DNA of 60,181 nt. Origin: Chiloscyllium plagiosum. Its lineage: Eukaryota. Each line of letters begins with the position of its first letter. The first letter of the stretch is position 1. The position numbers and the translations under genes were made by a program. Below, in pieces: positions 699 through 55,160 of this stretch. The stretch spans positions 20,424,553 through 20,484,733 of the forward strand of contig NC_057725.1 in assembly GCF_004010195.1 (NCBI RefSeq). The letters are read 5' to 3'. The notes below the pieces were generated by a model. The model searched no databases and had not been told where the DNA came from. It was given only the letters and a program-made list of their open reading frames with translations.

Positions 699-795
699 GT
701 TCGAGATAAGCCCTTTATTCCTGATGAAGGGCTTATGCCCGAAACATCGACTCTCCTGCTCCTCAGATGCTGCCTGACCTACACTTTTCCACAAC
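699..795 (+). mobile_element. Penelope-like terminal fragment with minimal hammerhead motif
   Basis: CTGATGA-A-GGGC(TTAT)GCCC-GAAAC-ATC at 721-748, followed by the family tail GATGCTGCCTGACCT. Confidence 0.7.
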
Positions 796-1472
796 AATCG
801 GTGTTTGGCTATTCCATGAAAGTCCCATGTTCTTGATTTCAGCAAAGAAAAGATCATAAAGCATGAATGGAGAAAAGGTGATCTGGCTGATCAAACCTAC
901 TCCTTCCCCAAACAATATACATCGACTCAATCTTGAACTTCACCACAGTTATTCACAAACCAATCTAAATAACAAAACATTTAGTCATCTACACAATTCA
1001 ACAGTGGCCTGATAGAATCTATCGACTATTATTTGCCCACCCCCACAACAGTCATCCTAGTTGCTACATCCTATTTCTGATGCTCAACGAACTGTAAGTC
1101 AACATTCTGATTAGAACTCTACCAGAATTCCACGTGTAACATAGCACATAACTTCGTCTTTCAAATGTTTCCTGTCTCAACAGTTCTTTGCAGCTTTTAC
1201 TTCTACCTCAAATTCTGCTCACAACCAGACAATGCCTACTCTTAAAAATGTGTTAATTTACAGAAGATAAATGTCTTCTGCTAAGAATTTGTAAGTTGGT
1301 GTAATTTCTCACCCCATCTATTTTACTACCTGCACACTTGGCCTACAATGTTAAATAGTCTCTTGCCCGTGATTCAATTATTTTTGGTTCTCTGACTCAA
1401 TCTTGTTTTGCTTAGAAATTGGCTGGTAATAAACGTCTTCTCATAACATTTCATCCAATTTATTCAACTCAC

Positions 1473-1598
1473 CTCTCTCTCATACCAGTTTGCAACCTGG
1501 AACACAGGTACCAGGGAATCCAGTGGTGTCAACTCATCAGTGTAAGTCTTCACACGGATACGAGAGTTAAATTGCAGCGAAAGCAGGTTATATACAAT
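1473..1598 (-). CDS. NDUFS3: NDUFS3 coding exon 5
   Basis: 126 nt, cag/gtgagt; [42 protein letters not shown]. Confidence 0.96.
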
Positions 1599-1744
1599 CT
1601 GTTGGAAAGTGAGAACAGAAGAGATCTTAAAATTAAATCTCAACATCTGCATGGGGTAATCCAAACCCCAATCAAATTGAAGTTCTTCCACAATTTATCC
1701 AATTCCCAATACTATGTTTTAAGTCAATACCTACTTTATAGCAA

Positions 1745-1940
1745 GGAGAAAGTGAGGGTTGCAGATGCTGGAGATCAGAGCTGAAAATGTGTTGCTGGAA
1801 AAGCGCAGCAGGTCAGGCAGCATCCAAGGAACAGGAGAATCGACGTTTCGGGCATAAGGGCTTATGCCCGAAACGTCGATTCTCCTGTTCCTTGGATGCT
1901 GCCTGACCTGCTGCGCTTTTCCAGCAACACATTTTCAGCT
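1745..1940. mobile_element. Fold-back non-autonomous Penelope-like insertion (perfect palindrome) with TSD
   Basis: Arms 1779-1858 and 1861-1940 are exact reverse complements; direct repeat ACTTTATAGCAA at 1733-1744 and 1941-1952. Confidence 0.85.
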
Positions 1941-2559
1941 ACTTTATAGCAAACCCATCGTAACAAAGGGGATCTGACAAGCATTTTGGCATTTCTGCTA
2001 TTATTTTTAGGTTATTTTTAAATGACTAATCTTATACTTTTTTTTAAAAAGAGGTTTCTGAGACCAGTTATTATGAGAAAGGACTGGTTCACAGTTCAGT
2101 CTGACACTACTATAATGTGATAGAGTCACAATAAAATTTCAGCTTAGACAGTGATGTGGTCTAACTCAAGCTATATACTTCTCAATATTCAGAATGAGAA
2201 ACACTCAAAGACTTCTCATTTATAGGTTTTAGACTTCAATTGTCTCTACCTTGTCTCTTATTTTGTTTTCTCAAGACTAGATTTTTTCGCTGTACAAACC
2301 TGATTGGGAAGATTTTGTTCATCTTGAGTTGATAGAATTAACCTTTTCTTCTCTCCAATCATCTTCAGTCTATCGTTGAACATACTTTTCTTAACCAACA
2401 TGATATAATTTGCACAAGCTTCACAGTCCATAACACTTTTTACATCAATTTTTATTCAACTCCCTTATCTCAAGTTTTGGGTCTTATCTCTTGAATGGAT
2501 GCCAATTTTCCAATTTGTGCTTTTGCATGTACATTAAATTCTGTGTCTGTAAGGTCTCA

Positions 2560-4460
2560 GTAACAGGAGTAGGTCACTTAGAATATCAAGCCTGCTCTGC
2601 CATTTAGCAAGAAGATAGCTGCTTAAACATAGAACATAACAGTGTAGTACAGACCCTTCAACTCTCAATGTTGCGCCAACCTGAGAAACCAACCGGAAGC
2701 CCATCTAACCTACACTGTTCATTTTCATCCATATGTCTATCCAATAAATATGTCTAAACAATTCATGTCTTTTACCCTCACTGTTCTCATAACCCTTTAC
2801 ACCATTGATAATCAAAGATTCAACAATCTCGACTTTAACTGTACTCAAATATTGATCTTCCAGAAAAAATTGGGGTAAACAAAAATTCTGAACAGTCCTA
2901 AATAGTATCTACCTTATTTTTAAAATTGTACCCCCAGTTCCCAATTGCCCAACCAGGTGGAACATTTTATCTGCATCTACCCTCTTTTTCTCTTCAATTA
3001 GATCATCTCTCATTCTTCCGAATTTGAGACAAGGCCCATTTTGTTCAATCTCTCATCAACCAGTCTCACAATCCCAGAAACAAGTCTGGTGAATCTTCAC
3101 TTCACTCCCTCTATGGCAAGAGCATCTTTTCTGAGATAAGGAGATCAAAACTGGACACAGTTCTTCAAGTGCAGTCTAACCAAGCTGCTAAACAATTGAA
3201 GCACAACTTCAATACTCCTGTATTCAAATCCTCATATAATGAGGGCTACTGTTTCATTGCCCAATCACCTGCATTTTAGCCTTCAGTGACTTAATGCCAA
3301 GAACAACCTAGTCCCTTTGCACAACTACACTTTCCACTTTGCAATCTCACCATTTAAGAAATATTCTGCACATGTTTCTCCAACCAAAATGGATACCCTC
3401 ATACTTTTCCACATTATTTTCCATTTGTCTCACTCTTAATCAATCACTAAATTCTCATTTAAACAAACCGCTCAAAGAACTGTGAATGTGGAAATCAAAA
3501 ACTAAATCAGAAATTGCTGAAAAAACCTAAGGTAGTATCTGTGGAGAGAAAGCAGAGTTAAAGTTTCAGATTCAGTGACCCTTCTGACCCACAGAATAGT
3601 CACTGCACCCAAAACATTAACTCTGCTTTCTCTCCACAAATCCTTCTCAAAATGGTTTACATCTTCCTCACTTCTGCTTAGCTTTCTATCATCTGCAAAC
3701 CTGAAAATATTACATTTGGTTCCCACATTAAAATCATTACAACTGGGGCCTCAAGTATTGATTCTTGCACACTCCACTAGTCACACTCCACCTATGTGAG
3801 AATAACCTATTACTGATCTGCTTTGTATTTGTTAGTCAATCCTTAATCCATGCTTCTACTTTATCTCCAATCCCAACAGGTTTAATTTTATTAACCAATC
3901 TCCTGTGGGGAACCTTATCAAAATCCAAATTTACTACATCATCAACTCCCCTTCATCAATTTTGTTAGTTACATCCTCAAAAACTAGACTATCAGGTTCC
4001 AGGGACTTTTAACTTTCCACCCCACTAATTTCTCCAGAACTATCTTCTTACTAATTCTAATTTTCTACAGATCCTCATACTCCTTAGTCACTAGGATCTC
4101 TGACTCTAGGAGATTTCTTGTACCTTCTTCAGTGAAAATAGACATAAAGTACTAATTTAGTTTCTCTGCCATTTCTTTATTCCCCATTAAAATTCTCCTG
4201 ACTTTGATTTTAATGGACCCACATTGTCTTAATCAAATGTCTCTTTTTTATAAACTGTAGAGGTTTGTGTAGCTGATTTGTTATGTGGTTTGCTAGATTG
4301 TATTCCTATTTGATTCTTCCTTTGCCGATCAGACTTCTTGGTCCTTCTTTGCTGCATTGAAAAGACTTCTCAATCCTCAGATTTATTACTATCTGGCCAT
4401 TTATAAGCCTTATCTTTTAATCTTATACAATCTTTAACTTTGTCAGCCACTGGTCACTGA
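2560..4460 (-). mobile_element. Decayed CR1-clade LINE fragments
   Basis: RT remnant FRFADDRKL (YADD motif) in ORF 3502..3726; AFDKVP-like and MGNKEMAE-like segments. Confidence 0.7.
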
Positions 4461-4513
4461 CCTATTTTGAATCTTGAGCATAGAAAAGACATTAAGGGAT
4501 ATCTAGGATTGGA

Positions 4514-4705
4514 GGAGAAAGTGAGGACTGCAGATGCTGGAGATCAGAGCTGAAAATGTGTTGCTGGAAAAGCGCAGCAGGTCAGGCAGCATCCAAGGAA
4601 CAGGCGAATCGACGTTTCCTGAAGAAGGGCTTATGCCCGAAACGTCGATTCTCCTGTTCCTTGGATGCTGCCTGACCTGCTGCGCTTTTCCAGCAACACA
4701 TTTTC
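4514..4705. mobile_element. Fold-back Penelope-like insertion with hammerhead core in the loop and 15-bp TSD
   Basis: ATATCTAGGATTGGA at 4499-4513 and 4706-4720; inverted arms about 4551-4618 / 4639-4706 with one mismatch; CTGAAGA-A-GGGCTTATGCCC-GAAAC-GTC at 4619-4646. Confidence 0.85.
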
Positions 4706-4720
4706 ATATCTAGGATTGGA

Positions 4721-5602
4721 TAAAGTGAAAAAGGGAAGCTCATGGTAGATACCAAGAGCACAAATCTGCAGACTCTCACCAGAAGTACAGAATGTGCAAG
4801 GGGAAATTTAAAAAGGGAATTAGGAGAACAAATGGAAGCATGAAAGAATAGTGGCAGGTAAAACAAAGGACAGTCCTAAATTATTTTACAGGTACATTAT
4901 GGGTAAAAGAAGTACTAGGGAAAGAATAGAGTCCATTAAGGACTACAGTGCTAATCTGCACGGAGCTGGAGGATCTAGATAGTAAACTAAATCAATACTG
5001 AGTCAGTGTTCACAAGTGAGTAGGACGACGTGGGTACAGAATACAGGTTTATAAAAACAGTCTGTGATATATTTATAGTAATCAGCCAAAGACAGTGAAA
5101 TTCTCAGAGTTCTGGCAGATTTAAAATTGGATAAATCTCTAAGGCTGGGTGAGACAAATCCCAGGCTGTTGAGTGAGGCACATCAATAGCAGGAACACTG
5201 TGCCTCCGGACACAGGAAAGATGCCAAAGGACTGGAAGACAGCTAATGTGGTACTAGCTTAATCAAGAAGGGAGCAAGAGATGGAATATGATTGAGGGAC
5301 ATAGACAGGGTAGACAGAAAGGTGGTTTCCACTTGGTGGAAGGATCAATGACAAGGATGCAAAGATTTGATGTAAAGAGCAGCAGATTTAAAGGGGATAA
5401 GAGGAAATTGTTTTTGAGAAGGTGGTGGGAATCTGGAACTCACCACCAGAAAGGGTGGTAGAAGCAGGAACCCTCAATATTTAAAAAATATTTAGATGCA
5501 CACTTATGATGCCAAGGCATCCAAGGTTATTGGCCAAGGAGGACTTGATAGGGCAAATGGCTTTTTTCTGTGTTATAATAGTATAAAATCTCTATGACTC
5601 TA
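4721..5602 (+). mobile_element. Decayed CR1 LINE fragment with 3' tail
   Basis: DWKTANVV-like segment; ends CTCTATGACTCTAT. Confidence 0.7.
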
Positions 5603-6264
5603 TATTTTAACAATTCATCTTCCAGCTGGTAACCTTATTGTCTCTGCTGGAATTCAAAACATGAGATTCTGTGTGGAGCAATCATCCCACCAAGTAATAT
5701 GAGTATTAATCCTCTTTTGACAGATAGGAGTGAAAGAGCTTAAAACATAGACGGAGTGCTGGACCTACAGTAATGTCATTGACTCCTAACTGCCGTCTAG
5801 ACAACTCGCGATGGGCATTAATTACTTGTCTGGCGAGTGACACCCACATCTAGAGATTGAACAAAAAAAAGCACAGCAGGTCCGTCACCATCTGTATAGG
5901 GGAAAGAGAATTCTGACGGAGGATCACTTGACTCGCAATGTCAATTGTTTTCTTTCTACAGATGCTGCCAGACCTGCTGTGCTTCTCAAAAACTCTTTTT
6001 GCTTCTGAGTTACAGCATCAGTAGTTTTTGTATTTATTTCAGAACTTAAGATTAGGATGCTTGACATGTTTGTCATCAGAATCTTTCAATATATACATTA
6101 TTGTTGAGTAAAGTTGTTCTCCAAAACAATAAAGAAAGCTTCCTTGTAACATCTTACATTTAATATTTGCAAACAAGCAAAATTATAAAGCTACAATAAA
6201 TGTACTATTTCATAGCACAATTGTAGTCACTTGTTTCACCCTCCCCAACCACTCCTTCAATTAC

Positions 6265-6414
6265 CTCAAATCTAAATTGACGAGAAGGGATATCAACTGC
6301 AGTTTCATCTACAAGAGATTTAAACTGAGCATTGGTATGATCTCGGAGGAACGTCATCACTGGTATTAAGCCATCTGGATGGATAAAAACCTCCAACTCG
6401 TTGAAACATGTCAC
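6265..6414 (-). CDS. NDUFS3: NDUFS3 coding exon 4
   Basis: 150 nt, tag/gtaatt; [50 protein letters not shown] (part of ORF 6205..6414). Confidence 0.95.
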
Positions 6415-6859
6415 CTATTTAAGAAAGACAAAGCAAACAGATATCACATTCACATACAGGCTTCATAAAATCATAACAGCATAACTTAAAACAGTATATA
6501 ATAACAAACAAATGAAACAAATTAATGGCAAAAAATTATTTTCCCTTTCAGTTTATCACCATTACTTTGGCCATTGGATGTATTTAGGGGTTAAATAAGA
6601 CAAATTGAAGGAATTAGGAAAGGATTTTTTTTTTTAAACAGCTCTCCACATCTAACACTTGCACAATAATGACAGTGAGACATCTTCAAAACATTGCTTG
6701 GATGAAAAACCCTGCTTGTTATTTTAAATGACGATTGCCTCCTATCAATCCAATCACTTCTGTGGTGGGATAGTACTAAATGCCAATATCAGATATTTGA
6801 TTGGATTTATTAAACTCAACAACGCGATTTATGTTTCGGTATCATTCTGACACACTTAC

Positions 6860-6957
6860 CTGCACCTGTTGGACATATTTGGGAAGAATTTCAGCAACAT
6901 ATTCACCAAATGCAGAGAGCTGGCTGTGCTGTAGTTCATTCTTTGGTCGGACAGTAG
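6860..6957 (-). CDS. NDUFS3: NDUFS3 coding exon 3
   Basis: 98 nt, cag/gtaagt; [32 protein letters not shown], near-identical to vertebrate NDUFS3. Confidence 0.95.
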
Positions 6958-10303: not shown

Positions 10304-10394
10304 CAACCACCTGATGAAGGAGCAGTGCTCCGAAAGCTAGTGCTTCCAAATAAACCTGCTGATCTATAATGTGGTCTTGTGTGATTTTTAACTT
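10304..10394 (+). mobile_element. 91-bp Penelope-like mini-insertion (second family) with hammerhead motif and TSD
   Basis: TGCTTTATA at 10295-10303 and 10395-10403; CAC-CTGATGA-A-GGAGC(AGT)GCTCC-GAAAG-CTA-GTG; the same tail is seen near 47930 and 55040. Confidence 0.75.
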
Positions 10395-11109: not shown

Positions 11110-12455
11110 GAGATTTACAGCACGGAAACATACCCTTTGAAGCCTCTACCACTTCCTCTGGCAGCTCATTCCATACATTCACCATCCTGTGTGAAAACAT
11201 TGTCCCTTTGGTCCCTTTTATATCTTTCCCCGTCACCCTAAATCTATGCCCTCGTGTTCTGGACTCCCCAAACCCAGGGAAAAGTTCTTGTCTATTTACC
11301 CTATCCATGCCCTTCATGACTTTATAAACATCAAAATCATTTATATAAATAATGAAAAGCAATGGACCCAGCACAGATCCTTGTGGCACACCACTGGTAC
11401 ATGCATCCAGTCTGAAAAGCAACCCTCCACGACCACCCTCTGTCTTTGACCTTCAAGCCAGTTCTGTATCCAAATGGCTAGTTCTCCCTGTATTCCATTT
11501 TGTTCTAACCTTGCAAACCAGTGTCCCATGAGGAACTTTGTCAAATGCCTTACTGAAGTCCACACAGATCATGTCTACCACTCTGCCCTCATCAATCCTC
11601 TTTGTTACTTCAAAACATTCAGTCAGGTTCGTGAGACATGATTCCCCATGCACAAAGCCATGCTGACAACCTTTCCTGAAGAAGGGCTTATGCCTGAAAC
11701 GTCGATTCTCCTGCTCCTTGGATGCTGCCTGACCTGCTGCGCTTTTCCAGCAACACATTTTTAAGCTCTGATCTCCAGCATCTGCAGTCCTCACTTTCTC
11801 CTCCTTTACAAATACATGTAAATCCTGTGCCTCAGGAATCCCTCTGACAACTTGCCCACTACCAATGGCAGGCTCACCAGTCTATAGTTCCCTGGCTTGT
11901 CCTTACCACCTTAAATAGTGGTACCATGTTAGCTAACCTCCAGTCTTCTGGCACCTCACCTGTGACTATCAATGATACAAATATCTCAGCAAAGGGTCCA
12001 GCAATCACTTCCTTAACTTCCCATAGAGTTCTAGGCTATACCTGATCAGGTCCTGGGGATTTATCCACTTTTATGCGATTCAAGACATCCAGCACCACCT
12101 CCTCTGTAATATGGACAATTTTCGAGATGTCATCACCTATTTCCCCACATTCTATATCTTCCATGTCCTTCTCCACAGTAAACACTGATGCAAAATACTT
12201 GTTTAGTATCTCCTCTATCTCCTGCAGCTCCACACATAGGCTGCCTGGCTGATCTTTGAGGGGCCCAATTCTCTCCAGAGTTACTCTTTTTTCCTTAATG
12301 TACTTATAAAATCCCTTTGGATTCTCCTTAACCCTATTTGCCAAAGCTCTCTCATGTCCCCTTTATGCCCTCTTTATTTCCCTCTTAAGTATACTCCTAC
12401 TGCCTTTATACTCTAAGGATTCATTCAATCTCTCCTGTCTATACCTGACATATGC
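11110..12455 (-). mobile_element. CR1 LINE ORF2 fragment (HER1-like)
   Basis: ENPKGFYKYIK..LNKYFASVFT..DKSPGPD; QHGFVHGESCLTNL..DFSKAFDKVPH; SGVPQGSVLGPLLFIIYIND. Confidence 0.9.
11671..11803 (+). mobile_element. Penelope-like terminal fragment with hammerhead motif, nested in a CR1
   Basis: CTGAAGAAGGGCTTATGCCTGAAACGTC at 11676-11703, plus a tail ending CCTCACTTTCTCCT. Confidence 0.75.
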
Positions 12456-14934: not shown

Positions 14935-15066
14935 AGGACAAAATGAGGACTGCAGATGCTGGAGAGTCAGAGTTGATAAAGCGTGGCACTGGAAAAAGCA
15001 GAGCAGGTCCAGCAGCATCCGAGGAGCAAGAGAATCAATGTTTCGAGCATAGCCTTTCTGCAGGAA
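14935..15066 (-). mobile_element. Penelope-like terminal fragment with decayed hammerhead core
   Basis: Same family tail in reverse; the core reads CTGCAGA instead of CTGANGA. Confidence 0.65.
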
Positions 15067-15102
15067 TTGAATAGAGGTGCCGCCAGTTTTTCAGGATATT
15101 TG

Positions 15103-24507: not shown

Positions 24508-24553
24508 AGCTCCCATATTGGAGACTCTACCATATCTCCAGGCTAAAATATGT

Positions 24554-24864: not shown

Positions 24865-24894
24865 AAATTGCAAGTTGCCAAACTAAGATAAGGT

Positions 24895-31167: not shown

Positions 31168-31194
31168 CAGTACTTAAATGTTGCTTTTTAAAAA

Positions 31195-38933: not shown

Positions 38934-39125
38934 ATTAATTAAATAAGCTGCCACCATAGTGGCACTGCGTGATCGCCCAGCCTTACAGTGTACATAGACA
39001 CTGGTTCCATTTTTACGATGTTTAGTAAGAAAATCAACGCCTTTTCTCAGGTCTTCTAATTTTGGTACTCCGAGTATATCAACTGTGCTGAGACGCAACT
39101 GCTCCACGCCAAAGGATTCCCATTC
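38934..39125 (-). CDS. PTPMT1: PTPMT1 coding exon 3 (catalytic P-loop)
   Basis: 192 nt, tttcag/gtatgt; EWESFGVEQLRLSTVD...VYVHCKAGRSRSATMVAAYLIN with the CX5R motif HCKAGRSRS. Confidence 0.97.
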
Positions 39126-39183
39126 CTGAAACACAACTTTGATTAGCAATTTAACTTAAAGTATTCAATTGGAATGTAACACT

Positions 39184-40616: not shown

Positions 40617-41971
40617 GAATGCAACACTACAAACGATGTTTTATTTCTCAATATAAAAAAAAAAGAGTCACTTCTTATGTATAGTCTCAGTATAGAATCA
40701 ATGTGTCAAATAATTTGGCTTCTGGTCACAAAGCATAGCCAAGCAACAGCACTGCCAAAGACAGGCATGAACATACCTGGTAAAATCTGAATGATAATGC
40801 TCATCACTGGCTGACAACCTACATTTAGAAAAGAACTGGTTTCCAATGATAGCGTGTGAGAATAAATCTTGAAAGGACTCATCACTTAATATTAACTAAA
40901 TCAAGAAAGTGTAGAAAATAAGTGGTGTAAATTCAATGCAAGTATAAAAAGTGAAGAAATAAAAAAAATTCAATTGTAAAGAAACATTCCATACTTTTAT
41001 TGGGGTTTCTCTGCATCTATTTTGCCAAAATATGAGAATCACATGAATATAGAAATCTTTATAAGGCTACAATTGAGAGACTGCATGCAAATGGAAACTT
41101 CCAATTGCAACACATTTTCATCCTGAGTAACAATACTAATGAGCTCCCTCAGTAAAAATCCTATTTTGATAACAAACCCAATAACACAAAACCTATATGC
41201 TTTCAGATTCTGCATCAAGTATTTTTGTAATTACTTTCCTTTTTGTCAGTTTGCAGGTTACAAAAAGCATCAAAGCAGCTGCTAAGGAAGTTCGAATCAT
41301 AATAACATGAAACCAATGCATAGTACCCAACTGAAAGGTAGATAGATAAAGAGCAACATTCAGATGGATGATGCTATAGAGTGACTCATGATGAAAATGT
41401 GAATGTTTGAGTATCATGCAAGGAAATGGTTGGCTTGTGTCTGATATCCATTGTATTGAAATAGCCTTCAAGACACATGGTTTAGAATAAAATATGTAGC
41501 ATGCTCACTGGGACAAAATACCAGACACCAGAGTGGAACTGTTTCCCAGCAAACATCAGTACTTTCCAGAGGAGAGAAAATAGAGAAAGCAGCAACCATG
41601 GCTCCTGGTCACATGAAACAGCTGAACTGCAATGCTTGAAGAGGTTTTTTTGCTTAAAATAAAAATCAATAACGTGCAATTCTTCTCTTTCATTTGATAC
41701 AATGTTGTTCTGACAATTCTTAGTGATACATGAAATGACGATGTAGGAGTGAAATATGAAAATGATTAGTGACATTTGATGGTAATTACAAATTACAATG
41801 CTATTAAAAGGTTACTGTCTCATCTCAAAACTCCAAGTTATTTTGCATTATTCACCTGCTATCAATCCTTTCTGCAAAGGGATCCTACACTAAAAAAATC
41901 TGTTCCACTTCAATCCAAGTAGCACGTGAACTATTGAATACCTCCCCATTAAGTTTTGTTTTTCTACCTAC

Positions 41972-42052
41972 CTTTGTTGTATTCACAAAAAATTTGGTTT
42001 CATAGTCTTCAGTCATGGTTATCACTCCTCGAACATTCTCTTTATTTACTAA
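41972..42052 (-). CDS. PTPMT1: PTPMT1 coding exon 2
   Basis: 81 nt, ttacag/gtaggt; LVNKENVRGVITMTEDYETKFFVNTTK. Confidence 0.95.
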
Positions 42053-42639
42053 CTGTAAATCAAGTAAAAGAATCATCGAAGGAGATGTAGCAGACAGAAA
42101 TGTGAACCTCAGGCAAACAGAGACAACGTAGACTTTTGCACAGAACGATCAAAATTTTTCAATAATACAAATTGAAGAATATCAGCAAATACAGAAGGTC
42201 AGATATGGGTTAAGGAACTGTCAATTATACTTGCTATATTACTGCAAAGAGATAAATATGCAATACAAATAAAAATTAAAATCAAAAACTGAAGTCTGAA
42301 ATTGAGTAGAGAAACATAGAAATCTACTAAAGTGCATGTTACTTAAAGCAAGACTGGAGGTTGTAAAATCTAAAAGGCAAGTGGGATGCTGTATTTCATA
42401 TAATCATTGCTCGTTGATACACAATTAGAGACTGGTGAAAACTCAGGTCACAAGTTTCTACCATAGATCTGTGACTGAACAGACTCATTTTTGAACATCA
42501 GATCTTCAGGCACATGGGACAACGTGTCCCACACGTTAGTGGGATCTACAGTGCTGGATTTGCTTCCTTTTCTTTCCTTCTGTGTCAGCACTCTGCCTCA
42601 TTAAGATGTCTGGACTCAAAAGCCTGACGCCATTTAATG

Positions 42640-43110
42640 GACAGGTCAGAGTGCAGAAGACGCCCTTCAGCCTATCAAGTCTGCACCAATAACTACTACT
42701 AAAATGCGCAGTAATCTCAATTTCCTGTACTTGTCCCATGCTCTTAATGTTAATGATATTTCAAGTGTGCATCCAAATATTTTTTAAAGATTGTAAGTTT
42801 CCGTCCTCCACTACCTTCTCAGGCATAACATTCCAGATTCCCACCATTCGGAGTGAAAATGTTTTTCTCAAATCTCCTCTGAATCTCCTGACCCTTATCA
42901 TAAAGCTGCACCCCTCATAACCGAGGCCCAAGGGGAGCAGCTGCTTCCTATTCACCTTAGGTATATCCCTCAATCTTATACACTTCAATCACATCCCTCC
43001 TCAGCCTTGTCTGCTCCAAAGGAAACAATCCAAGCCCATCTAATCTCTTCTTGTAGGTCAACTGTTCCATCTCAGGCAACATCCTGGTGAAGCTCTCTGC
43101 ACCCTCTCCA
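42640..43110 (-). mobile_element. CR1 3' fragment
   Basis: FTRMLPEM..YKKRLDGLGLFPLEQTRLRRDVIEVYKI. Confidence 0.8.
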
Positions 43111-44049
43111 GTTTGAGTCACTAAGTAGCAAGCTCCCTCCAACCATTAATGTCAATGTTTCAAGGATGATGCATTACAATAAAATAGAAGAAAGCATTAA
43201 CTTGGAGTGTTAATAATGACAGTGTTGAATGTGATTGAGAACTCCATTGTAGAAAGGACATTGGAGTCATGAAATGAGTAAAATGCAAATTAGATTGACA
43301 CCAGGATACTTCAATGACAGGATACTATTATAACGACTTCATCATGTGAAATGTGGACAATCAGCGTAACTTTAAAAACAAAACTTACATTAACATTTTA
43401 AAATTATTACAGGATAACTTCTTCAATCACAAGGGATTGAAAATTTCCTAGAAGTGACTGTGACAAAGACTGTCTTACTACTTTGAAATTATTTTGGAAG
43501 AAAAGGTCAGTAATAATTTTTAAAAATAAGGTGAATCACAAAGAAAAATATTTTAAAAAAGGTACTGGGATAATATTACAGACTCGAGATTTCCAATGCA
43601 CAGCTAACAGTAGCCTACCCTTGGGAAGCCAGTATGTGATTCTTCATCATCCTAAGCACATTTTGACAAAACCTTCACAACAAGAATTTGTTGAACCAAG
43701 CAATAAATGGTGCAAGTCCTTTCTGATGGTTAAAGACTGTACACAGATGATCCGTGTAAAGCAGGAGCTTTGACATTGGTTCTGCTGGATCTTGGGGCAA
43801 ATGCAGCCCAAAATCAGCACAAATGCAAAAAAAAAATGTAGACTTTAAAACCCCAACTACATTTGGTACAACTTTAGCTTCTCTCACCTTTGCATCAGTT
43901 TAATTTAATTTAAAATATTTGTCTAATCAGCTTGGTCAGAGACAGCATCACACACCACTCTGGAGAAAGTAGGATGTGAACTCAGGCCTCCAGATGTAGA
44001 AGTGGGGACACTGACACTGCACCACAAGAGGAGCTTAATAAACATCCAG

Positions 44050-44505
44050 CTCAAAACAAAGCAAAGAGCCACCCACAGTTATGGTCCATTGGCATCATCG
44101 GAAACATCAGTCAACATCTTCACACACAACAAATCAGTCTGCAAGTTGGAAGAACGACACCTTATCTTCTGCCTGGGCAGACTACAGCCCAAAGGCCTTA
44201 ACACTAAGCTCCCTAATTTCATATAACCTTCCCACCCATCCCATGGCCCCTTCCCAACCCCACTTCCTCCCTTCTATTCCAACTACTGAACCTTTCTTCC
44301 AGCTACCAATCAGATTGACCCATCCCATCAACCAACCAGGTCTTACCCACTACTTTTATCCACCTATCACTACCTCACCATCCTAATACTCTCCTCTGCA
44401 GCTCCCGTTACCCTCACATCTAGTCCTGACGAAGGGTTAATACCCAAAACATTGACTTCTCCACCTCCTGATGCTGCCTGATTTGCTGTTCTTCCATCTG
44501 CGTTG
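44050..44505 (+). mobile_element. Old Penelope-like 3' fragment
   Basis: CKLEERHLIFCLGRLQPKGLN (endonuclease C-terminus); decayed motif CTGACGAAGGGTTAATACCCAAAAC near 44426. Confidence 0.7.
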
Positions 44506-44561
44506 GCCAACTTCATGCAACCCCGCCTCGCCCCTTCATACAGACTCCGCCCAGTCACGTG

Positions 44562-44663
44562 AGGCCCCGCCCCCACGCTTGAATGCGGGCTGACTCCAGG
44601 CCCCGCCCCCACGCTTGAATGCGGGCTGACTCCAGGCCCCGCCCCCACGCTTGAATGCGGGCT
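44562..44663. repeat. 36-bp tandem repeat, about 2.8 copies
   Basis: AGGCCCCGCCCCCACGCTTGAATGCGGGCTGACTCC starting at 44562, 44598 and 44634 (last copy partial). Confidence 0.95.
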
Positions 44664-44832
44664 CTCTCCCCCCACCCCCCCGTACCTCATGGGTGAGTGA
44701 GCGGAAAGGTAGCGCCCCGATGATGACAGTCTGACCCCGCCCCCAGGCTCCATTCGCCTCTCTCTCCCCCCACCCCCCCGTACCTCATGGGTGAGTGAGC
44801 GGAAAGGTAGCGCCCCGATGATGACAGTCTGA
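44662..44832. repeat. Exact 73-bp direct duplication spanning the PTPMT1 exon 1 / intron 1 junction
   Basis: 44662-44734 is identical to 44760-44832 (offset 98). Confidence 0.95.
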
Positions 44833-44930
44833 TCGATGCGGTCATACCAATGCCGGCCCCACACCTTCGACATGAAGATGTTATAACCCAGACTCGGCAA
44901 GAAAACGGCGCGCGCGAACAACGCCTCCAT
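44784..44930 (-). CDS. PTPMT1: PTPMT1 coding exon 1 (mitochondrial phosphatidylglycerophosphatase)
   Basis: MEALFARAVFLPSLGYNIFMSKVWGRHWYDRIDQTVIIGALPFRSLTHE; 147 nt; GAG|GTACGG donor; CpG-rich context. An in-frame ATG at 44966 is an alternative start. Confidence 0.92.
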
Positions 44931-45282
44931 TACTAACGGCCACTTCCTATCCTTCACGTCCCCCATAAGCACCCTCCCCGACTTCCGGTCCGTCCTCCGA
45001 GCCGCTTCCCCCCCTCCCTTCCCCGGCACCTCACTGGTTCCTCCTGGCGGCAGGAATGTCCTTTTTTATTTCTCCAGGGTCAGGGATTGTAGATACTGAT
45101 CACCTGAAAAAGAAAGCACAAACGACTGCTGATGTCAAATAAAAAAACGTCTCTTAACGAAACTGTTAAGTTGCAGAAGGAAGCCATTTGGCCCATCGTG
45201 GCTGCACTAGCTCTATTATTCAGTCTAACTCTTACTACCTTGTGCCAGCCTCTGCTTTTCCCCCATTTCCCTGAAAATCATT

Positions 45283-46479
45283 CCTCGTCCATTTCCCGCA
45301 CCTCCGCCCTCAGACCCCATCCCTCCAACCGTAACAAGTACAGAACGCCCCTGGTGCTCACCTTCCACCCTACCAACCTTTGCATAAACCAAATCATCCG
45401 CCGACATTTCCACCACCTCCAAGCAGACCCCACCACCAGGGATATATTTCCCTCCCCACCCCTTTCCGCCTTCCGCAAAGACCGTTCCCTCCGTGACTAC
45501 CTGGTCAGGTCCACGCCCCCCTACGACCCACCCTCCCATCCTGGCACTTGACCCTGCCACCGCAGGAACTGTAAAACCTGTGCCCACACCTCCTCCCTCA
45601 CCTCCATCCAAGGCCCTAAAGGAGCCTTCCACATCCATCAAAGTTTTACCTGCAAATCCACTAATATCATCTATTGTATCTGTTGCTCCCGATGCGGTCT
45701 CCTCTACAATGGGGAGACTGGGCNNNNNNNNNNNNNNNNNNNNNNNNNNNNNNNNNNNNNNNNNNNNNNNNNNNNNNNNNNNNNNNNNNNNNNNNNNNNN
45801 NNNNNNNNNNNNNNNNNNNNNNNNNNNNNNNNNNNNNNNNNNNNNNNNNNNNNNNNNNNNNNNNNNNNNNNNNNNNNNNNNNNNNNNNNNNNNNNNNNNN
45901 NNNNNNNNNNNNNNNNNNNNNNNNNNNNNNNNNNNNNNNNNNNNNNNNNNNNNNNNNNNNNNNNNNNNNNNNGCTATGCTACTTTCTCCCCACCCCCACC
46001 CTCTTCTAGTTATCTCTCCACGCTTCAGGCTCACTGCCTTTATTCCTGATGAAGGGCTTTTGCCCGAAACGTTGATTTTGGAGCTCCTTGGAGGCTGCCT
46101 AAGCTGCTGTGCTCTTCCAGCACCACTGGTCCAGAATCTGGTTTCCAGCATCTGCAGTCATTGTTTTTACCTCTTGAACTGTCCTGCCTATCCATCTTTC
46201 TTCTCACCTATCCACTCCACCCACTTCTCTGGCCTATGACCTTCACCCCCACCTTCATCTACCTATTGCATTCCCAACTACTTTCCCCAGCTCCACCTCT
46301 ACCCCCTCCCATTTATCTCAGCCCAGCCCTCTTGGGCCACGAGCCTCATTCCCGATGAAGGGCTTATGCATGAAAAGTCGATTCTCCTGCTCCTTGGAGG
46401 CTGCCTGACCAGCTGTGCTTTTCCAACACCACACTTTTTGACTCTGAACCCCAGCATTTGCAGTCCTCACTTTCTCCTC
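45283..46479 (+). mobile_element. Penelope-like element (Cys-rich linker + GIY-YIG start) plus a second terminal fragment; contains an N gap
   Basis: PLVLTFHPTNL...FPSPPLSAFRKDRSLRDYLVRS, then PCHRRNCKTCAH and NIIYCICCSRCGLLYNGETG; hammerhead motif at 46046-46073; decayed second motif near 46352. Confidence 0.85.
45724..45972. other. Assembly gap (N run); smaller gaps at 18516-18531 and 59292-59328
   Basis: Runs of n, all inside repeats. Confidence 1.
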
Positions 46480-46499: not shown

Positions 46500-48040
46500 T
46501 AACGTGCCATGGTGAGAAACCGTAATGGCCTCCTCAGGAGACTGACATGTGATGCTTATGGGATAGGATACCCTTCATTGTCCAGTACATCCCGGGAGCG
46601 GAGAAACTATGCCATGTTCTTTGCAGCCTGTGACACATTATCAATGAGGATGAGCACCTCACCAAGGCCTTCTCTACGCTTCCACTCCTTGCCTTTAAAC
46701 AACCACCAAACCTTAAATGGACCATTGTTAGCCACCTTCAGGACAACATCGACCACAACTCCATACAACCCTGTCATAGCAACCACTGCAAGACGTGTCA
46801 GAGTGTCGACATGGATACCACCATTACACGTAGGCACACCACCCACCATGTACACAGCAGGTATTCCTGTGCCTTGGCCAATATTGTCTACCCTTGCAGG
46901 CAAGGATGCCTCGAGGCATGCTACATTAGTGAGACCAGGCAGACGCTATGACAACGGATGAATGGATACCATGCAACAATCTGTGGGCGGCACGGTGGCA
47001 CAGTGGTTAGCACTGCTGCCTCACAGCGCCTGAGACCCGGGTTCAATTCCCGCCTCAGGCGACTGACTGTGTGGAGTTTGCACGTTCTCCCCGTGTCTGC
47101 GTGGGTTTCCTCCGGGTGCTCCGGTTTCCTCCCACAGTCCAAATATGTGCAGGTAAGGTGAATTGGCCATATTAAATTGCCCATAGTGTTAGGTAAGGGG
47201 TAAATGTAGGGGCATGGGTGGGTTGCGCTTCGGCGGGTCGGTGTGGACTTGTTGGGCCGAAGGGCCTGTTTCCACACTGTAATGTAATCTAATCTAATCT
47301 AATCGCTAGACAGGGATGTTCCCTTCCACTTGAGGAACACTTCAGCGGTCAGAGACATTCGACCTCAGACTTTCGGGTGTCCATCCTCCAAGACAAACTT
47401 CGAGATACGCAATAACGCAGAGTGACTGAGCAGAAGCTGATAGCCAAGTTCGGAATCCTGAGAACGACCTCAACTAGGCCCTTGGGTTCATGTCCCCACT
47501 ACTCTCTCTCTCTCACACATAGTCGCACACTCATGCAAACCCTCTTTATATTTGCAAGTACATACTATTTTGCTCAAAAAACGCACAATTTGCAGACAGT
47601 CAATACAGGCTGTCAATCCATATAACATTTTATATATTCCCACTTTGGAAATTGAACCAGTCTGACTCAAGATTGGGATACCGATAGACTCTAACCTCAC
47701 AGCTTTAATACATTTATGAGCTGAGATGTCACCTCTTTTTATAAAACCTTAAGTTAGCTCGAAAATGTGACTTAAAAGAAGTCCTGCAATTTACATATTA
47801 ATGAACTGAAACCTGCAACCCATTCTAAATGACGAAAGACTTAACAGCAATCTAGGTTTGTTCAACATATCTTTTCAGCTGTAATCTTTCGCTATAAATT
47901 TTGTGTCTTATGATCTTGCTCCACAACCACCTGATGAAGGAGCAGCAGTCTGAAAAGCTAGTGCTTCCAAATAAACCTGTTGGACTATAACCTGGTGCTT
48001 TACCTTTGTCCACCCCAGTCCAAAACCGGCACCTCCACTT
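46500..48040 (+). mobile_element. Penelope-like element (second family), interrupted by a SINE
   Basis: Decayed ORF LAFKQPPNL..PCHSNHCKTCQ..YISETRQTL*QRMNG, resuming after the SINE with EQKLIAKFG; 3' region ends in the CTGATGAAGGAGC tail near 47931. Confidence 0.8.
46985..47303 (+). mobile_element. Young full-length V-SINE nested in a Penelope-like ORF
   Basis: CpG-rich, near-consensus copy with (AATCT)n tail; the host ORF resumes after it. Confidence 0.9.
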
Positions 48041-48060
48041 CATGCATCCCTATCGTGTAG

Positions 48061-49080: not shown

Positions 49081-49978
49081 TGATTCCTGCATTGGTAATG
49101 CAACTCACTGCGCTAATATGAGCTGCTGCTTATGATGAATGTTACTGTCGCCATAAGAAGTTCTGAAAAAAGGTCACTCAACCCAAAACATTAACCTGGA
49201 TTTTCTCTCCAAAGATGCTGCCAGACTTGCTGAGCTTTTCCAGCAATTTCTATTTTTGTCTCCAATTCTCCACTTTGCTGCGTAGGTGCCACTGTTGTAG
49301 CTGAATTGGATCAGCTTGTCTGGGGGCGCGGCTAATTCTGGAACACAAATCTTCAGTATCATTGCCAGAGCATTGTCAGGGTTTATAGTCTTTGCTGGAT
49401 CCAGCGCCTTCAGTTGTTTCTTGATATTACTTAAAAGCGGAGGAAATTGGATGAAGTCTGGCAAATGTGATCCTGTGGATCACCGGAGGAGATCAGGTTG
49501 GATCACCCATTTGACAGTTCTGGCTGAAGATAGACGGGTGCAAATGCTTCAACCTTGCCTTTTGCAATGATGGGTTGGGTTCCCCCATCATTGAGGACAG
49601 GGATACTCGTGGAGCCTCCTCCGGTGAATTGTTTAACTATGTGCCATCATTCATGACTGGAAGTGGCAAGACTGCAGAGCTTAGATCTGATCTTTTGATT
49701 GTGGCATCAATTATTTTCTTTAAATCTGTGTTTCCTGTATCCTGTATATCCTGTATTCTGACAAGCTCAGGCTTGTCATGATCAAGATCCTGACTACAAG
49801 ACTGCTGTTTTGAAGTTAAAAATTCAGACAAACTAACTACTGAAACGTCAACGCTTCTGCTCCTCTGATGCTGCTTGACCTGCTGTGCGTTTCCAGCTCC
49901 ACATTTTATTGACTCTTGAAATGCCCATTTAAAATTACCTATGCTTCTTTTTGCTAAGATCTTGCACATTTCACTGAT

Positions 49979-50567: not shown

Positions 50568-52750
50568 TTTGTATATACAAGGATACCTAAATAATGGTAT
50601 GTTTTAAGAAGATGAGAGAACACTGTATATCAGTTTTCATATAAGACCCGCACATTGTTTAGTGAAAGGTTGCAGCTCAATCTAATAAGACAGTGGAATT
50701 CCAATTCATTTAATCTTTGCCTCTTCCACTTTGTTTAGCTTTACTGTCCTATAAACTTTCCTTTCAGTCCAACTCCATTCACTTTGTGTTTTGCAAAATT
50801 GCTGCACTAATTTCTGATAGCAAGTGCACTGAAAACCACAAGAAAAAATGGAAATTCTTCAGTAATGAAGAAACATTTTGCTTGCAATCAAGTTATTTAT
50901 CATTTTTCCATGCAACAAAGATTTCTCTGTAGGGCACAGACTGCCTCAAATGCAGATATCTAACTCTTCACAAATAAAAATGCAAAAGATTGCAGCTGCT
51001 GAAAATCTGAAATCAAATTTGGACATGCAAATTCAAAACCCTTCACATCAGGCAAAGTGGATATAATTTTGAAATTACATTGGTAAAGTGATTCCATATT
51101 TTTTAGCTTCTGTTACCGTCACATGAATGCTGCATAACTCTTACACAATACAAACATACACACTTTTTCTTAAAACTAAGCATTAATTGATATTAACTTT
51201 TGTGTCTTTATACTCTTTTAAACATTACGGGTGGAAAATATGTGATTCTGAGAATGAAACAAGTAGCAGACAAAAGTGATCACCAGAGTTAATTAAGAAA
51301 TAGTCTGAACTTACCCATAATTTCAAGTGTTGTGCTTGCTAAGACTAACAAGTGTTTGTGTTCCATTCAGGTTATGCAAAATAAACTGACAGAATTGAGC
51401 ATTCCCATGTTTTTATGATGTTAAATTATGACATCGAGACTAATTTAAAATTAAGAATTCCAAGAGTGATTATATTTAATTTTATTACAGATACTGGAAA
51501 AGTATATACATAAACTGTACAATGTTACATCATAACCTTAAAAACTGACCCCAACTAAGTTTACTCCTTCAATTAAAATTTCTGTGGTATCTTGGATAAT
51601 GCTCAAATTAGATTGATTTCCGGTTGCAGATTCTAACTTCACTTAAATCCTTCCATTCCAGTGCTTGAAACCTTTAATATTACTTTGAACTTAGTATTTC
51701 AATGTATCGCATTGCCCTCCAGAGATGGTTGTTAAATACTAATTAGTTGTTAGACTGACAATGCAAATTGTAAACTTCTCAGTTTTCTTTGTTTTGTTTT
51801 GACTTGAAAACATCACCACACTCAGGTCCATTCATCATAATTTATCATGTCGGCCCTGAATTTCTAGTCAGCTGAAAAGTGATAGCACTCGTTGACCTGG
51901 AATTTATACACAAAGATCGAACAATCAGTGTCAATTTGAAGAGTTCTTCAGGCATCCAGCAACGCTGATGTCAGCAGGCAGCGTAAGCAGTCAATCACAC
52001 TGAAGAATTCTTACCAATAACCAAGTTGAAAGTGATGAGCTCTGATTATCCTATTCTTTTAATAAAATTTACAGCAAGTGAAATAAAGATAGGGATGTAC
52101 ACATTAGAAGCTGAAATGTCGAACAAAAGTTTTTAAAATATTATATCAGAAAGCAATGGAATTTTTATCATAATGAACCATTTGACATTATGCCATTATA
52201 AAATTTATTTTCCTAGGCCAGAGAGGTTGTTCAATGATTAGTTATGACTTATGATGCCATTAAAAAAATTAAGTAAAATTTCCTTTCTAAGATATAACTT
52301 GGTGGGGAGTTAATAATATCATAGCATGAAAGAGGAAGTCCTTATCAGTTTCAGTGATTTTGAATGATTGCTGTCTGCCAGGACTTCAAAGACACATTCT
52401 GTGGAAGAGCAATAAATCACTTACAGCTTTTAATAGTGTGTGTGCAGACACCAGGAATTGCTACCTCAGGTTAATGAATGTAAACACCAGCGATATTGCT
52501 ATTAATACAACAGCAACATCTGCTTTGCATCTTCTTTTTACACAAAGACACTCTCCAAATCCAAACACAAGTACGAAGAAAAATATCTTGATTTTTTTTT
52601 TAAAATGTGTATTGGTCAATTCCACAATTGTTGAGGCAATACATAATTTTGTTTCCTGATTCAGAAATATTCAGATCCATGGAAAACATTAAATAGTCTT
52701 CTTGAAATTATTTTCAATCTTCCCAAAATGATTACATCCCACTTCAGTGA

Positions 52751-52951
52751 TTACTTTAAAAGTTCTTTAAGTTGTCCTCTGATGTAGGCAGGGAGAGGCA
52801 GTGTGTCAATGTGAACTTTATCTATTAGATGCTGGATGACTGTGTATAGACACTGCTCCTGTAGTGACATGAACCGACAGCTTCTCATCCCAAGCTGAAG
52901 TTCTGTTTCTGCAGTTGTGGAAGTGACAATGGGATACAGGGGTGCCCCAAC
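52751..52951 (-). CDS. SPSB3-like last coding exon (SPRY end + SOCS box); absent from the ORF track
   Basis: ctgacag acceptor, phase 0, 201 nt; VGAPLYPIVTSTTAETELQLGMRSCRFMSLQEQCLYTVIQHLIDKVHIDTLPLPAYIRGQLKELLK*, with BC-box SLQxxC and Cul5-box LPLP. Confidence 0.88.
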   Translation of the reverse strand, partial: VGAPLYPIVTSTTAETELQLGMRSCRFMSLQEQCLYTVIQHLIDKVHIDTLPLPAYIRGQLKELLK

Positions 52952-54239
52952 CTGTCAGGTTCAAACAGAACTTAAATCAGTGGCATATAATGGTCTAGAA
53001 ATTAAATAAATTTCAGCATTACAATGTAGTCTTTTGAATCAAACAAAAGGAATAAAATTGCACCTCTGTACTTCAACTGTAATAAGGGTTTTAATCACCA
53101 TTTTATGTTAAACAGAAATAAGACATTTTTGCTCATCTGAAACCGGAGTGGTTTATTCTATTAGATTGTTATCTCCAGCTTGATAGATGTACTTGACATG
53201 CATTTTATCTTCAGCAAGCTATCTTTCCCTCATGTGGTAATGCTCATGTTATCCCTTAGAATAAAGAATATGGTTTTAAAGTGTCCAACAGAACCTTTAT
53301 TGCAGCTCACTGTTTATATGTAAATGTTGGGGAGATGATGACGTAATGATATTGTCGCTGGACTAGTAATCCATGAGAACCAGGTTGACCTGCATTCAAA
53401 TCCCATCAAGGTGAAATTTAATTTAAAGGACTGTCCGGAATTAAAAGTTTAATGATGACCATGAAACCTTTGTTGATTGTCCTACAAATCTATATGGATT
53501 ATAAATGCCCTTCAGGGAAAGAAATCTGCTCCCCAAAGACTATCCGCCATCTACAAGGCACAAGTCAAGAGTTTGTTGGAATACTCCGTACTTAAGTGGA
53601 TAGCAGTGTGTCCCAGTTACAAAGTGTACTGCAAAATTTTATCAAGGCTCCTCAGACTTTGCCTTCTAAACTCATGATATTACCATCTAGGTGGACAAGG
53701 TAAATATGTGGGACCATCGTCACATTCCAAAACCTCTTTACCCACTCATCATCTTGACTTCAAAATGTCTTCCTGTTCCTTTAGTGCCACTGGGTCAACA
53801 TCCTAGAAACTCTATCCCTGACAGCATTGTGAGGGTCGCTGCACAAATTAGACTGCAGCTATTTGAGAAGGTAGGTCATCACACCGTCTCAAGGGGATTA
53901 GGGTGGGACGTAAAGACTGACACAACCAGCAAAGCTTATATCCTCTGAATGAATAAAAGAAAGTTAGATTCACAGATATAGAAATATCTGGACTATTATT
54001 AGGTCATTTGGCTACAAAAAAAATTGATTTTCATCAGAACATCATGCTTCAAGTGATCCAAGTTTGTGTCTAAGACTTTTATACCCTCAGGTTACAAGCT
54101 ATGATACAGTAATGATACAGTAGATTTCTCAAAATTGTGCTGACATACCGACTGAAAGACAACAAATAATCTCAGATATACGGTTGTACATTGCCATGTT
54201 TTGCCAATTTGATAATTATGCAAACAGGAAAAAACAGGC

Positions 54240-55160
54240 AGCAGCGAAAAGTGGCCGAGCAGAGGCTGATAGCTAAGTTCCGTACCCATAGGGAGGGCCT
54301 CAACCGGGACCTTGGGTTCATGTCACATTACAGGTGGCCACCATTGCAGTATACACACACACAGATACTCCTACACACACACACTCTCTCTCACACACAC
54401 AGGCACTCCTATACACACATACACACAGACACACATATACACAGACACGCACACAGACACCCACACACACCCTTACAGACACACACACTCCCACACTCAC
54501 ACATGCACCCCCACACAGACTTAAGACACTCTACATTCACTACACACACGCATACACTTTCTCACACTCACAACCTCCAACCCAGACAGACACATACACA
54601 CAGACAGACAAAGACCCACATACACACATATATTTTGTGGGGTGAATTTGTACTTGCAGGGTTACATTGTACTTTGCTCAAAAACTGCATGCATTCATGT
54701 AGAACTCTGAGCTCAAAAACTGCATGAATTCATGTAAAACTCCATTATCTCACTTTTTAGATTAGAATCAATCTAAACATCATGGCATAGACAGAGAACA
54801 CAGGGGACTAACACCTTCAACATATTGTCTAGTTATCACCATTGTTAACAGCTAACCTGAGAATGCAACTTTTTAAAAAAAGGTTTTGTGATTTACAAAT
54901 TAAAGAAGTGAAACTATCATGGTATTCTAACAGATGAAAGGCTTAACAGACAATCAATTTTTCAATGTATAATTTCAGTTACATCACACTGTAAATTTTT
55001 TGCTATAAATTCTGTGTTACGATCGAGCCCTCCACTATCACCTGATGAAGGAGCGATGCTCCGAAAGCTAGTGCTTCCAATTAAACCTGTTGGAATATAA
55101 CCTGGTGTTGTGTGATTTTTAACTTTGTATACCCCAGTCCAACACAAGCAACTCCAAATC
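54240..55160 (+). mobile_element. Penelope-like 3' fragment with CA-rich tract and intact hammerhead motif
   Basis: QRKVAEQRLIAKFRTHREGLNRDLGFMSHY; degenerate (CA)n at 54350-54630; CAC-CTGATGA-A-GGAGC(GAT)GCTCC-GAAAG-CTA-GTG at 55039-55073. Confidence 0.8.

Follow-up and report, generated by a model that had tools for sequence, protein, structure and literature searches.

The window analysed here is a stretch of 60,181 nucleotides from the bamboo shark Chiloscyllium plagiosum (RefSeq assembly GCF_004010195.1, contig NC_057725.1, positions 20,424,553 to 20,484,733 of the forward strand), in which the host genes NDUFS3 and PTPMT1 and a BTB-BACK-Kelch gene are interspersed with short fragments of Penelope-like elements (PLEs). 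Our subject is the minimal hammerhead ribozyme (min-HHR) motifs found at the termini of these elements. A sequence-only reading of the same DNA, made without database searches, had described seven motifs of the form CUGANGA-A-(helix II)-GAAA-N-NUH in two families, A and B; all seven are present at the positions below with a perfect core (7/7), and the helix II sequences it gave for the two families were right, with G10.1-U11.1 at motif 11676. Motifs are named here by the coordinate of C3.

719..750, plus strand: family A min-HHR, C3 at 721, predicted cut after 748; palindrome ACAU; an upstream fold-back arm sequesters the core
4617..4648, plus strand: family A min-HHR, C3 at 4619, predicted cut after 4646; right arm of an inverted pair
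11674..11705, plus strand: family A min-HHR, C3 at 11676; G10.1-U11.1 wobble
30588..30619, minus strand: family A min-HHR, C3 at 30617, predicted cut after 30590; best-preserved family A copy, at the end of a 5'-truncated PLE
46044..46075, plus strand: family A min-HHR, C3 at 46046, N17 = U; end of a 5'-truncated PLE, with a decayed copy 306 nt downstream
10308..10342, plus strand: family B min-HHR, C3 at 10311, predicted cut after 10339; passes the published descriptor
55039..55073, plus strand: family B min-HHR at the end of a 5'-truncated PLE, C3 at 55042, predicted cut after 55070; passes the published descriptor

The descriptor search that the sequence-only reading had proposed was carried out with the min-HHR descriptor printed in Fig. 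S7 of PMC4209133, re-implemented with a variable limit on helix I; with helix I relaxed, it returned exactly these seven motifs from both strands. Across 400 dinucleotide shuffles, the mean number of matches per window was 0.085 without helix I (maximum 2), 0.0125 with a helix I of at least 2 bp and 0.0025 with at least 3 bp. At the strict setting of at least 3 bp, both family B motifs pass (2/2) and family A does not (0/5): its helix I consists only of a C-G and a U-A pair followed by a U.U or U.C mismatch, and hence none of the five satisfies the published descriptor. Helix II is 3-7 bp long in all seven motifs and is closed by G10.1-C11.1 in six, by G-U at 11676. The palindrome claimed in place of helix III (ACGU or AGCU) stands in six motifs and fails at 721, so that positions 15.1-16.1 are palindromic, allowing a helix III between the two halves of a dimer, in 6/7. 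These are not canonical type I hammerheads, whose helix I is about 6 bp long and makes loop contacts; here it has 2-3 bp, and an Rfam scan of the window gave 22 matches at E<=5, none of them a hammerhead and none at the gathering score, the best being microRNA models on inverted repeats. The seven motifs represent two independent origins only, families A and B. Motif 11676 heads a solo terminus of ~130 nt (11673-11803) inserted in a fragment of LINE-type (long interspersed element) reverse transcriptase (RT), and motif 10311 heads one of ~94 nt (10303-10396) with a 9-bp target-site duplication (TSD). Next to motif 721, nucleotides 703-718 repeat part of its helix II region in inverted orientation and so form a miniature fold-back arm.

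That the motifs are carried by Penelope-like termini, as the sequence-only reading had proposed, is borne out by protein homology upstream on the same strand together with an architecture of TSDs, inverted arms and tails. Remnants of the PLE open reading frame (ORF), coding for RT and endonuclease (EN), lie upstream and on the same strand for 3/7 intact motifs (30617, 46046 and 55042), and likewise for two decayed motifs, 44426 and 47931; the other four intact motifs are placed in the pseudo-long terminal repeats (pLTRs) of PLEs by repeat-family membership. The remnants of families A and B are:

45285..45722, plus strand: family A ORF remnant with the RT C-terminus, a CxxxxCxxC linker and the beginning of GIY-YIG; contains one stop and extends into an assembly gap
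30527..31165, minus strand: family A 5'-truncated PLE insertion comprising a linker/EN remnant with an internal deletion, the 3' untranslated region (UTR) and the HHR; 11-bp TSD
46562..47502, plus strand: family B ORF remnant with linker and GIY-YIG, leading to decayed HHR 47931
54215..54331, plus strand: family B ORF C-terminal remnant upstream of HHR 55042

The best matches of these elements come from Chiloscyllium punctatum. The first remnant is 90% identical to homologue P0001 over 146 aa (E=5e-80); the third, split by an insertion resembling a short interspersed element (SINE) at about 46985-47302, matches P0014 from Heptranchias at 60% and 58% identity (E=8e-44 and 7e-16), and the fourth matches P0014 at 67.5% over 40 aa (E=1e-12). 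An RT followed by a C-terminal GIY-YIG is present in the close homologues P0001-P0003 and P0014, with RVT_1 in P0002 and GIY-YIG in P0003 both above the Pfam cut-off; the window holds the linker/EN part, and direct Pfam scans of its five PLE fragments gave no GIY-YIG match and two unrelated sub-threshold ones. The CxxxxCxxC linker occurs in the homologues and in the window at 45552ff and 46730ff. A CX2-5CxxC linker between RT and EN is described as a mark of Neptune and Nematis, common also to Naiad (PMC8557442), and a 2026 preprint (10.64898/2026.07.22.740005) reports Neptune and Poseidon from vertebrates; because of both, we take families A and B to be probably Neptune-type. Their proteins are just 31-35% identical to each other, yet the ribozyme core is common to both. 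The last 14 residues of P0004 from Stegostoma equal a read-through translation of a family A-like hammerhead, which suggests the same motif in another carpet shark, with a gene model running into the pLTR. Pattern scans for the termini of families A, C and D gave no match in metagenome contigs or viral contigs.

A profile search found 31 terminus arms of families A-D in the window, and one more was found by eye. Sixteen of these span the core (7 intact and 9 decayed) and ~16 lack part or all of it; with two further decayed motifs in a Poseidon-like family, E, the estimate of about ten decayed copies was a fair one. Families C, D and E come in addition to A and B, and every motif in them is decayed. 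Where no strand is given below, the feature is an inverted pair.

46171..46478, plus strand: pLTR-like unit of 308 nt with a decayed family A HHR (C3 at 46352), a partial tandem behind the 46046 copy
59159-59478: pLTR-like unit similar to the preceding one, C3 at 59351
14935..15067, minus strand: decayed family A terminus, C3 at 15063
43999..44488, plus strand: family D EN C-terminal remnant (protein E=6e-5) and decayed HHR, C3 at 44426
56713..56893: family C inverted pair, decayed HHR with C3 at 56812 on the minus strand
56027..56200: family C inverted pair, decayed HHR with C3 at 56157 on the minus strand
49156..49262, plus strand: family C terminus, decayed HHR with C3 at 49163
5867..6044: family C inverted pair, C3 at 5913 on the plus strand; minus arm beginning near the cut site, in the helix I register
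3474..3650: family C inverted pair with its junction in the core
47772..48046, plus strand: family B 3' UTR and decayed HHR, C3 at 47931
19176..19343: family B inverted pair, plus arm without helix II
39186..40613: family E Poseidon-like inverted PLE pair with a GIY-YIG remnant (E=2e-4) and decayed HHRs at ~40544 (plus) and 39256 (minus)

The two ~310-nt units at 46171 and 59159 start at the same sequence, which suggests a fixed boundary ~180-190 nt upstream of the motif. At 19263-19280 the family B arm retains CUGAUGA and has lost helix II, as if the polymerase had skipped the hairpin. The family E pair sits in a PTPMT1 intron, ends ~60 nt from the exon 3 acceptor, and has UCA/UGA as helix I.

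The pLTR, the inverted 5'-truncated copy and the one-sided tail are all found in elements of the window. Eight short head-to-head pairs were examined by eye, and the youngest of them show the junctions most clearly:

1744..1940: young family A inverted pair, head to head, with its junction inside helix II and a 3-nt overlap; 14-bp TSD; tail on one arm; CUGANGA retained by neither arm
4511..4706: young family A inverted pair with its junction at UUC/GAAA and a 3-nt overlap; 15-bp TSD; tail on one arm

In both pairs the tail is of about 35-39 nt. TSDs of 9-15 bp flank 4/16 units checked; for the other 12 the TSD search gave matches of at most 7 nt, treated as none. The six young family A arms differ at 0-2 of 68 positions, and five of them start at +11, +6, +20, -3 and -3 to -7 relative to C3, the cut being at +28; the sixth extends about 550 nt upstream of the motif. 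The family B copy at 10311, whose limits are defined by its TSD, begins at -8. When assembled contigs were aligned to 30300-31250, depth fell 4.3-fold at 30620, and among the matches listed 30621 and 30612 are the points where loose contig ends with mixed flanks accumulate. Automated mapping of 5' ends was unreliable for inverted pairs and for families without an upstream reference of the same subfamily. YYANWYY with its A at -4, which resembles the Initiator consensus, occurs in all five long A/D copies, a match partly forced by helix I, and Drosophila Penelope is reported to have an internal promoter containing an Initiator (PMC2377424). It is thus a reasonable but unproven idea that the copies are run-off products from an RNA start. 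Among the contig joints listed (12 of 60), some connect 30621 (the helix I 5' strand) to 30587-30590 (the cut-site region), and one connects 30589, the first base past the cut, to 30530, the tail-less end; such joints may be either fold-backs in the helix I register or tandem duplications that make cis dimers or units headed by the cut site. A block of ~30 nt, lying ~20-55 nt past the cut site (e.g. 4665-4696), is common to A, C and D despite their differing helices, and is a candidate RT-binding or downstream promoter element.

The claim that the core is kept while the helices differ between families holds across all five. Helix II pair 4 is C-G in A, U-A in C and D and G-C in B, and pair 3 is A-U in B and G-C elsewhere; in helix I, pair 1 is U-A in C as against C-G, and pair 2 is A-U in B as against U-A. 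Motif 44426 of family D thus has helix II GGGU/ACCC and helix I GUC/GAC, and motif 56157 of family C has GGGUC/GACCC and GUU/AAC. Within families, eight of the nine A+D copies (15063 being excluded for a deletion) gave a single compensatory pair, and 59/500 shuffles scored as high, which is not significant; the remaining helix changes weaken or break pairs. Among 13 core-spanning copies, the core and the neighbouring block shared by A, C and D have decayed at equal rates (12/143 or 8.4% vs 33/361 or 9.1%, p=0.86), as they have without the three youngest copies (10.9% vs 12.2%). This fits a core conserved by selection in active source elements and decaying neutrally after insertion.

The further suggestion that some of these motifs may still self-cleave gains no support: the evidence from predicted folding, motif orientation, missing cis partners, the neutrality of decay and the RNA read profile leans the other way. 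In all seven predicted monomers, at three flank lengths, the pairing probability of helix I is at most 0.06, and the predicted dimer fold costs 3-30 kcal/mol above two monomer folds: 3.1 and 5.3 for the family B motifs, 4.7 for 11676, 6.1 for 30617, 13.5 for 46046, and 25-30 for 721 and 4619, both of which are locked in predicted fold-back hairpins (z=-4.0 for 721; -82.3 kcal/mol and z=-15.8 for 4619). None of the seven has an intact cis partner in the window, and the sole near pair, 46046 with the decayed 46352, would form a hybrid helix III with a G.A mismatch at 11.7 kcal/mol. Motifs 721 and 4619 lie antisense in NDUFS3 introns and 10311 and 11676 probably do as well, the 5' exons of NDUFS3 being outside the mapped set; 30617 lies between two gene ends, and 46046 and 55042 are on the strand opposite to PTPMT1, upstream of that gene. 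No intact motif (0/7) is in sense orientation within a mapped host gene, and a motif-based look for a further plus-strand host gene beyond 45 kb found none, a sense transcript over 46046 and 55042 being nonetheless possible. RNA reads were aligned to 30300-31250 (family A) at 88% likeness. In a single-cell run (X19), 2429 of 12.96 million records matched, and in run X20 none did; for 95% of the X19 matches the similarity ends within the record, the pattern expected of copies embedded in host transcripts. In X19 read starts or ends do not pile up anywhere along 30300-31250, and depth across the cut site falls alike in the two read directions, to 0.69 and 0.75, with a corresponding 0.66 in the DNA-like contigs of X15. 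Ribozyme RNA ends are poorly captured in reads. On these models and reads, the dispersed copies are likely inert.

The density of the motifs is high. Seven intact motifs in 59.9 kb correspond to 117 per Mb (95% confidence interval 47-241, from one window), and the two that pass the descriptor to 33 per Mb (4-121). The summed contig depth on the motif is ~5-7 x 10^5 times that of unique flank, which is a depth ratio and not a copy number. For a genome of 3-4 Gb, motif density and contig depth point to 10^5-10^6 copies. The published min-HHR counts are about 4,000 in coelacanth and about 9,000 in Xenopus (PMC4209133), and the density in the shark window points far above both; for axolotl, up to 120,000 retrozyme copies are reported.

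As to kind, these motifs are no surprise after the 2014 description, which already covers fishes, lamprey, coelacanth, frog and reptiles (Cervera and De la Peña 2014, PMC4209133). By their sequence, family B tests as a member of the class of PLE min-HHRs described there and family A is a variant with a 2-bp helix I. The class has the same core, an extra nucleotide after A9, G10.1-C11.1, a palindromic 15.1-16.1 and a short helix I, and likewise occurs as several families per genome, mostly as single dispersed motifs from truncated PLEs and with some opposite-strand pairs. In Fig. S3 of that paper the Acropora Neptune motif has nearly the helix II of family A, and the turtle motif has the G-C-U-H tail of family B; cartilaginous fish are absent from Fig. 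S3 and Table S1. The helix I of family A fails the descriptor of that paper, but 2-bp cases from Drosophila and Culex stand in its alignment, such variants having been accepted when found by hand. Monomers are reported there to be inactive and dimers slow, and dimer cleavage is also attributed to Lunse et al., as cited in PMC6765202. Our literature searches found no paper on shark PLE hammerheads, though Lunse et al. may list shark examples. The EN+ Neptune PLEs of Craig et al. 2021 (PMC8557442) are described with the same RT, CX2-5CxxC linker, C-terminal GIY-YIG, 5' truncation and partial tandems, and also with the inverted 5'-truncated copy, the one-sided tail of 30-40 bp and the HHR in the pLTR; they differ in inserting at microsatellites, whereas the shark sites are AT-rich with TSDs of 9-15 bp; the elements in the window are fragments. 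For the Poseidon element PAc of Anolis carolinensis (Frangieh et al. 2024, PMC11167929), the tail is reported to be set by two internal RT start sites, uncut RNA to be the main template and no RNA reads to end at the HHR cut site; HHR mutants insert normally in vitro, and HHR cleavage needed protein. PAc belongs to a different clade from families A and B, and its ORF starts inside helix II. The non-LTR retrozymes (Cervera and De la Pena 2020, PMC7229834; Li et al. 2026, preprint 10.64898/2026.07.22.740005) also carry type I HHRs in small non-coding units related to pLTRs, but are described as tandem arrays with an intact HHR per unit and a canonical helix I, neither of which occurs in the shark window: its only tandem is 46046/46352, and the second motif there is decayed. 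HHR-bearing tandem repeats are reported from one chondrichthyan genome (10.64898/2026.07.22.740005).

The best interpretation, to which we give a probability of about 0.85, is that these are minimal type I hammerheads at the pLTR ends of Neptune-type PLEs, left in the genome as short 5'-truncated, likely inert, neutrally decaying insertions. An active parent element would use the motif in dimeric form: the ACGU or AGCU palindromes of two copies in one tandem transcript would pair to form helix III, the cut following NUH; such cleavage would be slow and probably aided by the element's own protein, as PMC4209133 and PMC11167929 lead us to infer. The dispersed copies would arise when reverse transcription begins at internal 'tail' sites ~90-130 nt downstream of the motif on an RNA not cut there, so that the complementary DNA (cDNA) ends within or just 5' of the motif and often folds back on 3-nt overlaps to give inverted pairs. 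The core would be constant across five families with different helices because selection acted on the parent lineages. Several points weigh against this interpretation. The window contains fragments only and no full-length PLE, and the clade assignment follows a linker motif and not an RT tree. A cruder first comparison gave a slower decay of the core (11/165 or 6.7% vs 145/925 or 15.7% downstream, p=0.002); it was set aside, being inflated by subfamily differences and by running into flanks, and neither decay test is clean since the copies were ascertained partly by their core. Nearest-neighbour folding ignores tertiary contacts and protein help, and the RNA look is a weak test, confined to family A and one informative run, covering ~2% of that run, with chemistry and strand unknown. 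The similarity between long copies from different subfamilies ends at -2 to -12, so subfamily divergence accounts for part of the apparent 5' boundary. In addition, the minus arm at 5912 begins close to where family C would be cut, and its junction coincides with the helix I register.

That some dispersed copies are themselves live ribozymes under selection for or against them, cutting host or intergenic transcripts either as trans-dimers drawn from very many copies or through the 46046/46352 cis pair, is quite unlikely. The sequence-intact 10311, 55042 and 30617, with a predicted dimer cost of merely 3-6 kcal/mol, the family A records among RNA reads, and one strongly cleaving dimer in vitro among nine frog retrozymes (10.64898/2026.07.22.740005) would speak for it, against which stand the neutral decay of the core, the absence of a read-end pile-up, the reported inactivity of monomers and slowness of dimers, and the mismatch in the only cis hybrid. 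Purging could yield the lack of intact motifs sense to mapped host genes, but that sample is tiny, with two motifs surely and two probably intronic. It is unlikely, too, that the short units headed by an HHR make up a non-autonomous family of retrozyme-like or SINE-like type that propagates by copying its own transcripts and does not consist of one-off truncations of PLE RNA. Termini exceed upstream sequence ~4-fold in contigs and 5-fold in RNA reads, but this depth step is partly subfamily divergence; the shared start point of the two ~310-nt units and the reported non-LTR retrozymes averaging 363 bp, with one chondrichthyan genome among the reports, have to be set against a window without a tandem array of HHR units and motifs without the long canonical helix I of retrozymes. 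Moreover, the young pairs have near-identical arms but different junctions, in keeping with a fresh fold-back each time a copy was inserted.

The idea that the parents keep the motif as a structural, promoter or RT-binding signal, with cleavage incidental, is possible but doubtful, and it is compatible with our preferred account of the dispersed copies as truncated, inert insertions. It draws on the normal insertion of the anole mutants and the absence of RNA ends at the cut site (PMC11167929), on copies that derive from RNA uncut at the motif, and on a conservation between families that extends past the cut site; yet the catalytic residues, NUH and the palindrome are all retained across lineages whose proteins have diverged as far as those of A and B, and the anole HHR cleaves once protein is added. 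The probability that the motifs arose as chance matches and were merely amplified along with the repeats is negligible. The seven reduce to two origins, no Rfam hammerhead was matched and the covariation within families is not significant, but 0.085 are expected against seven observed, and five families whose helices differ share one core at a constant position with respect to a PLE ORF or terminus; we regard this reading as excluded by the shuffle test and the motif position. A more ambitious combination is rather unlikely as a whole: several hundred thousand core-intact min-HHRs, above published vertebrate counts, would be mostly run-off cDNA of a PLE leader that starts at an Initiator-like site on the helix I 5' strand and folds back via the ribozyme helices, the dominant family with a 2-bp helix I would have been missed by published searches, and, at such a density, trans-dimers between pre-mRNAs would cut often enough to bring selection against them in sense introns.

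Taken as truncated PLE termini, the motifs extend a known pairing of retroelement and ribozyme to sharks and provide natural variants from five families, including the form with a 2-bp helix I. What goes beyond the known kind is the very high density, and copies that start at the 5' edge of the ribozyme and not at the cut site. Since the young insertions start upstream of the cut, in agreement with the uncut RNA template reported in vitro (PMC11167929), the genome offers a very large sample for mapping PLE RNA starts and the formation of inverted ends. There is no sign that the copies in the window serve the host.

The host genes, whose exons bear out the shark origin proposed by the sequence-only reading, are:

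233..6955, minus strand: NDUFS3, four mapped exons (394-233, 1667-1470, 6414-6259, 6955-6851)
22807..28630, plus strand: BTB-BACK-Kelch gene, poly(A) signals at 29053 and 29151
36299..44966, minus strand: PTPMT1, four exons

The three PTPMT1 exons represented in isoform P0022, a Chiloscyllium protein, are identical to it, and the fourth matches a whale-shark protein. By synteny, the BTB-BACK-Kelch gene is presumably KBTBD4. A tandem duplication of about 98 nt with 91% identity (44637-44832 and 44562-44681) takes in the boundary of PTPMT1 exon 1 with intron 1, beside a GC-rich tandem repeat of 36 nt, and this is either a second copy of the splice-donor region or an assembly slip. Other repeats in the window are:

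10799-12362, 19746-20146 and 32803-33532: LINE-type RT fragments, two of them with weak RVT_1 matches
9795-10105, 10746-11054, 15103-15421, 24194-24520, 24555-24866, 27321-27646, 46985-47302 and 55528-55805: copies of a SINE-like repeat

The SINE-like repeat is of ~310 nt with a tRNA-like head and has about eight copies in the window, two of them back to back at 24194-24866; it may be related in form to the elasmobranch HE1 SINE.

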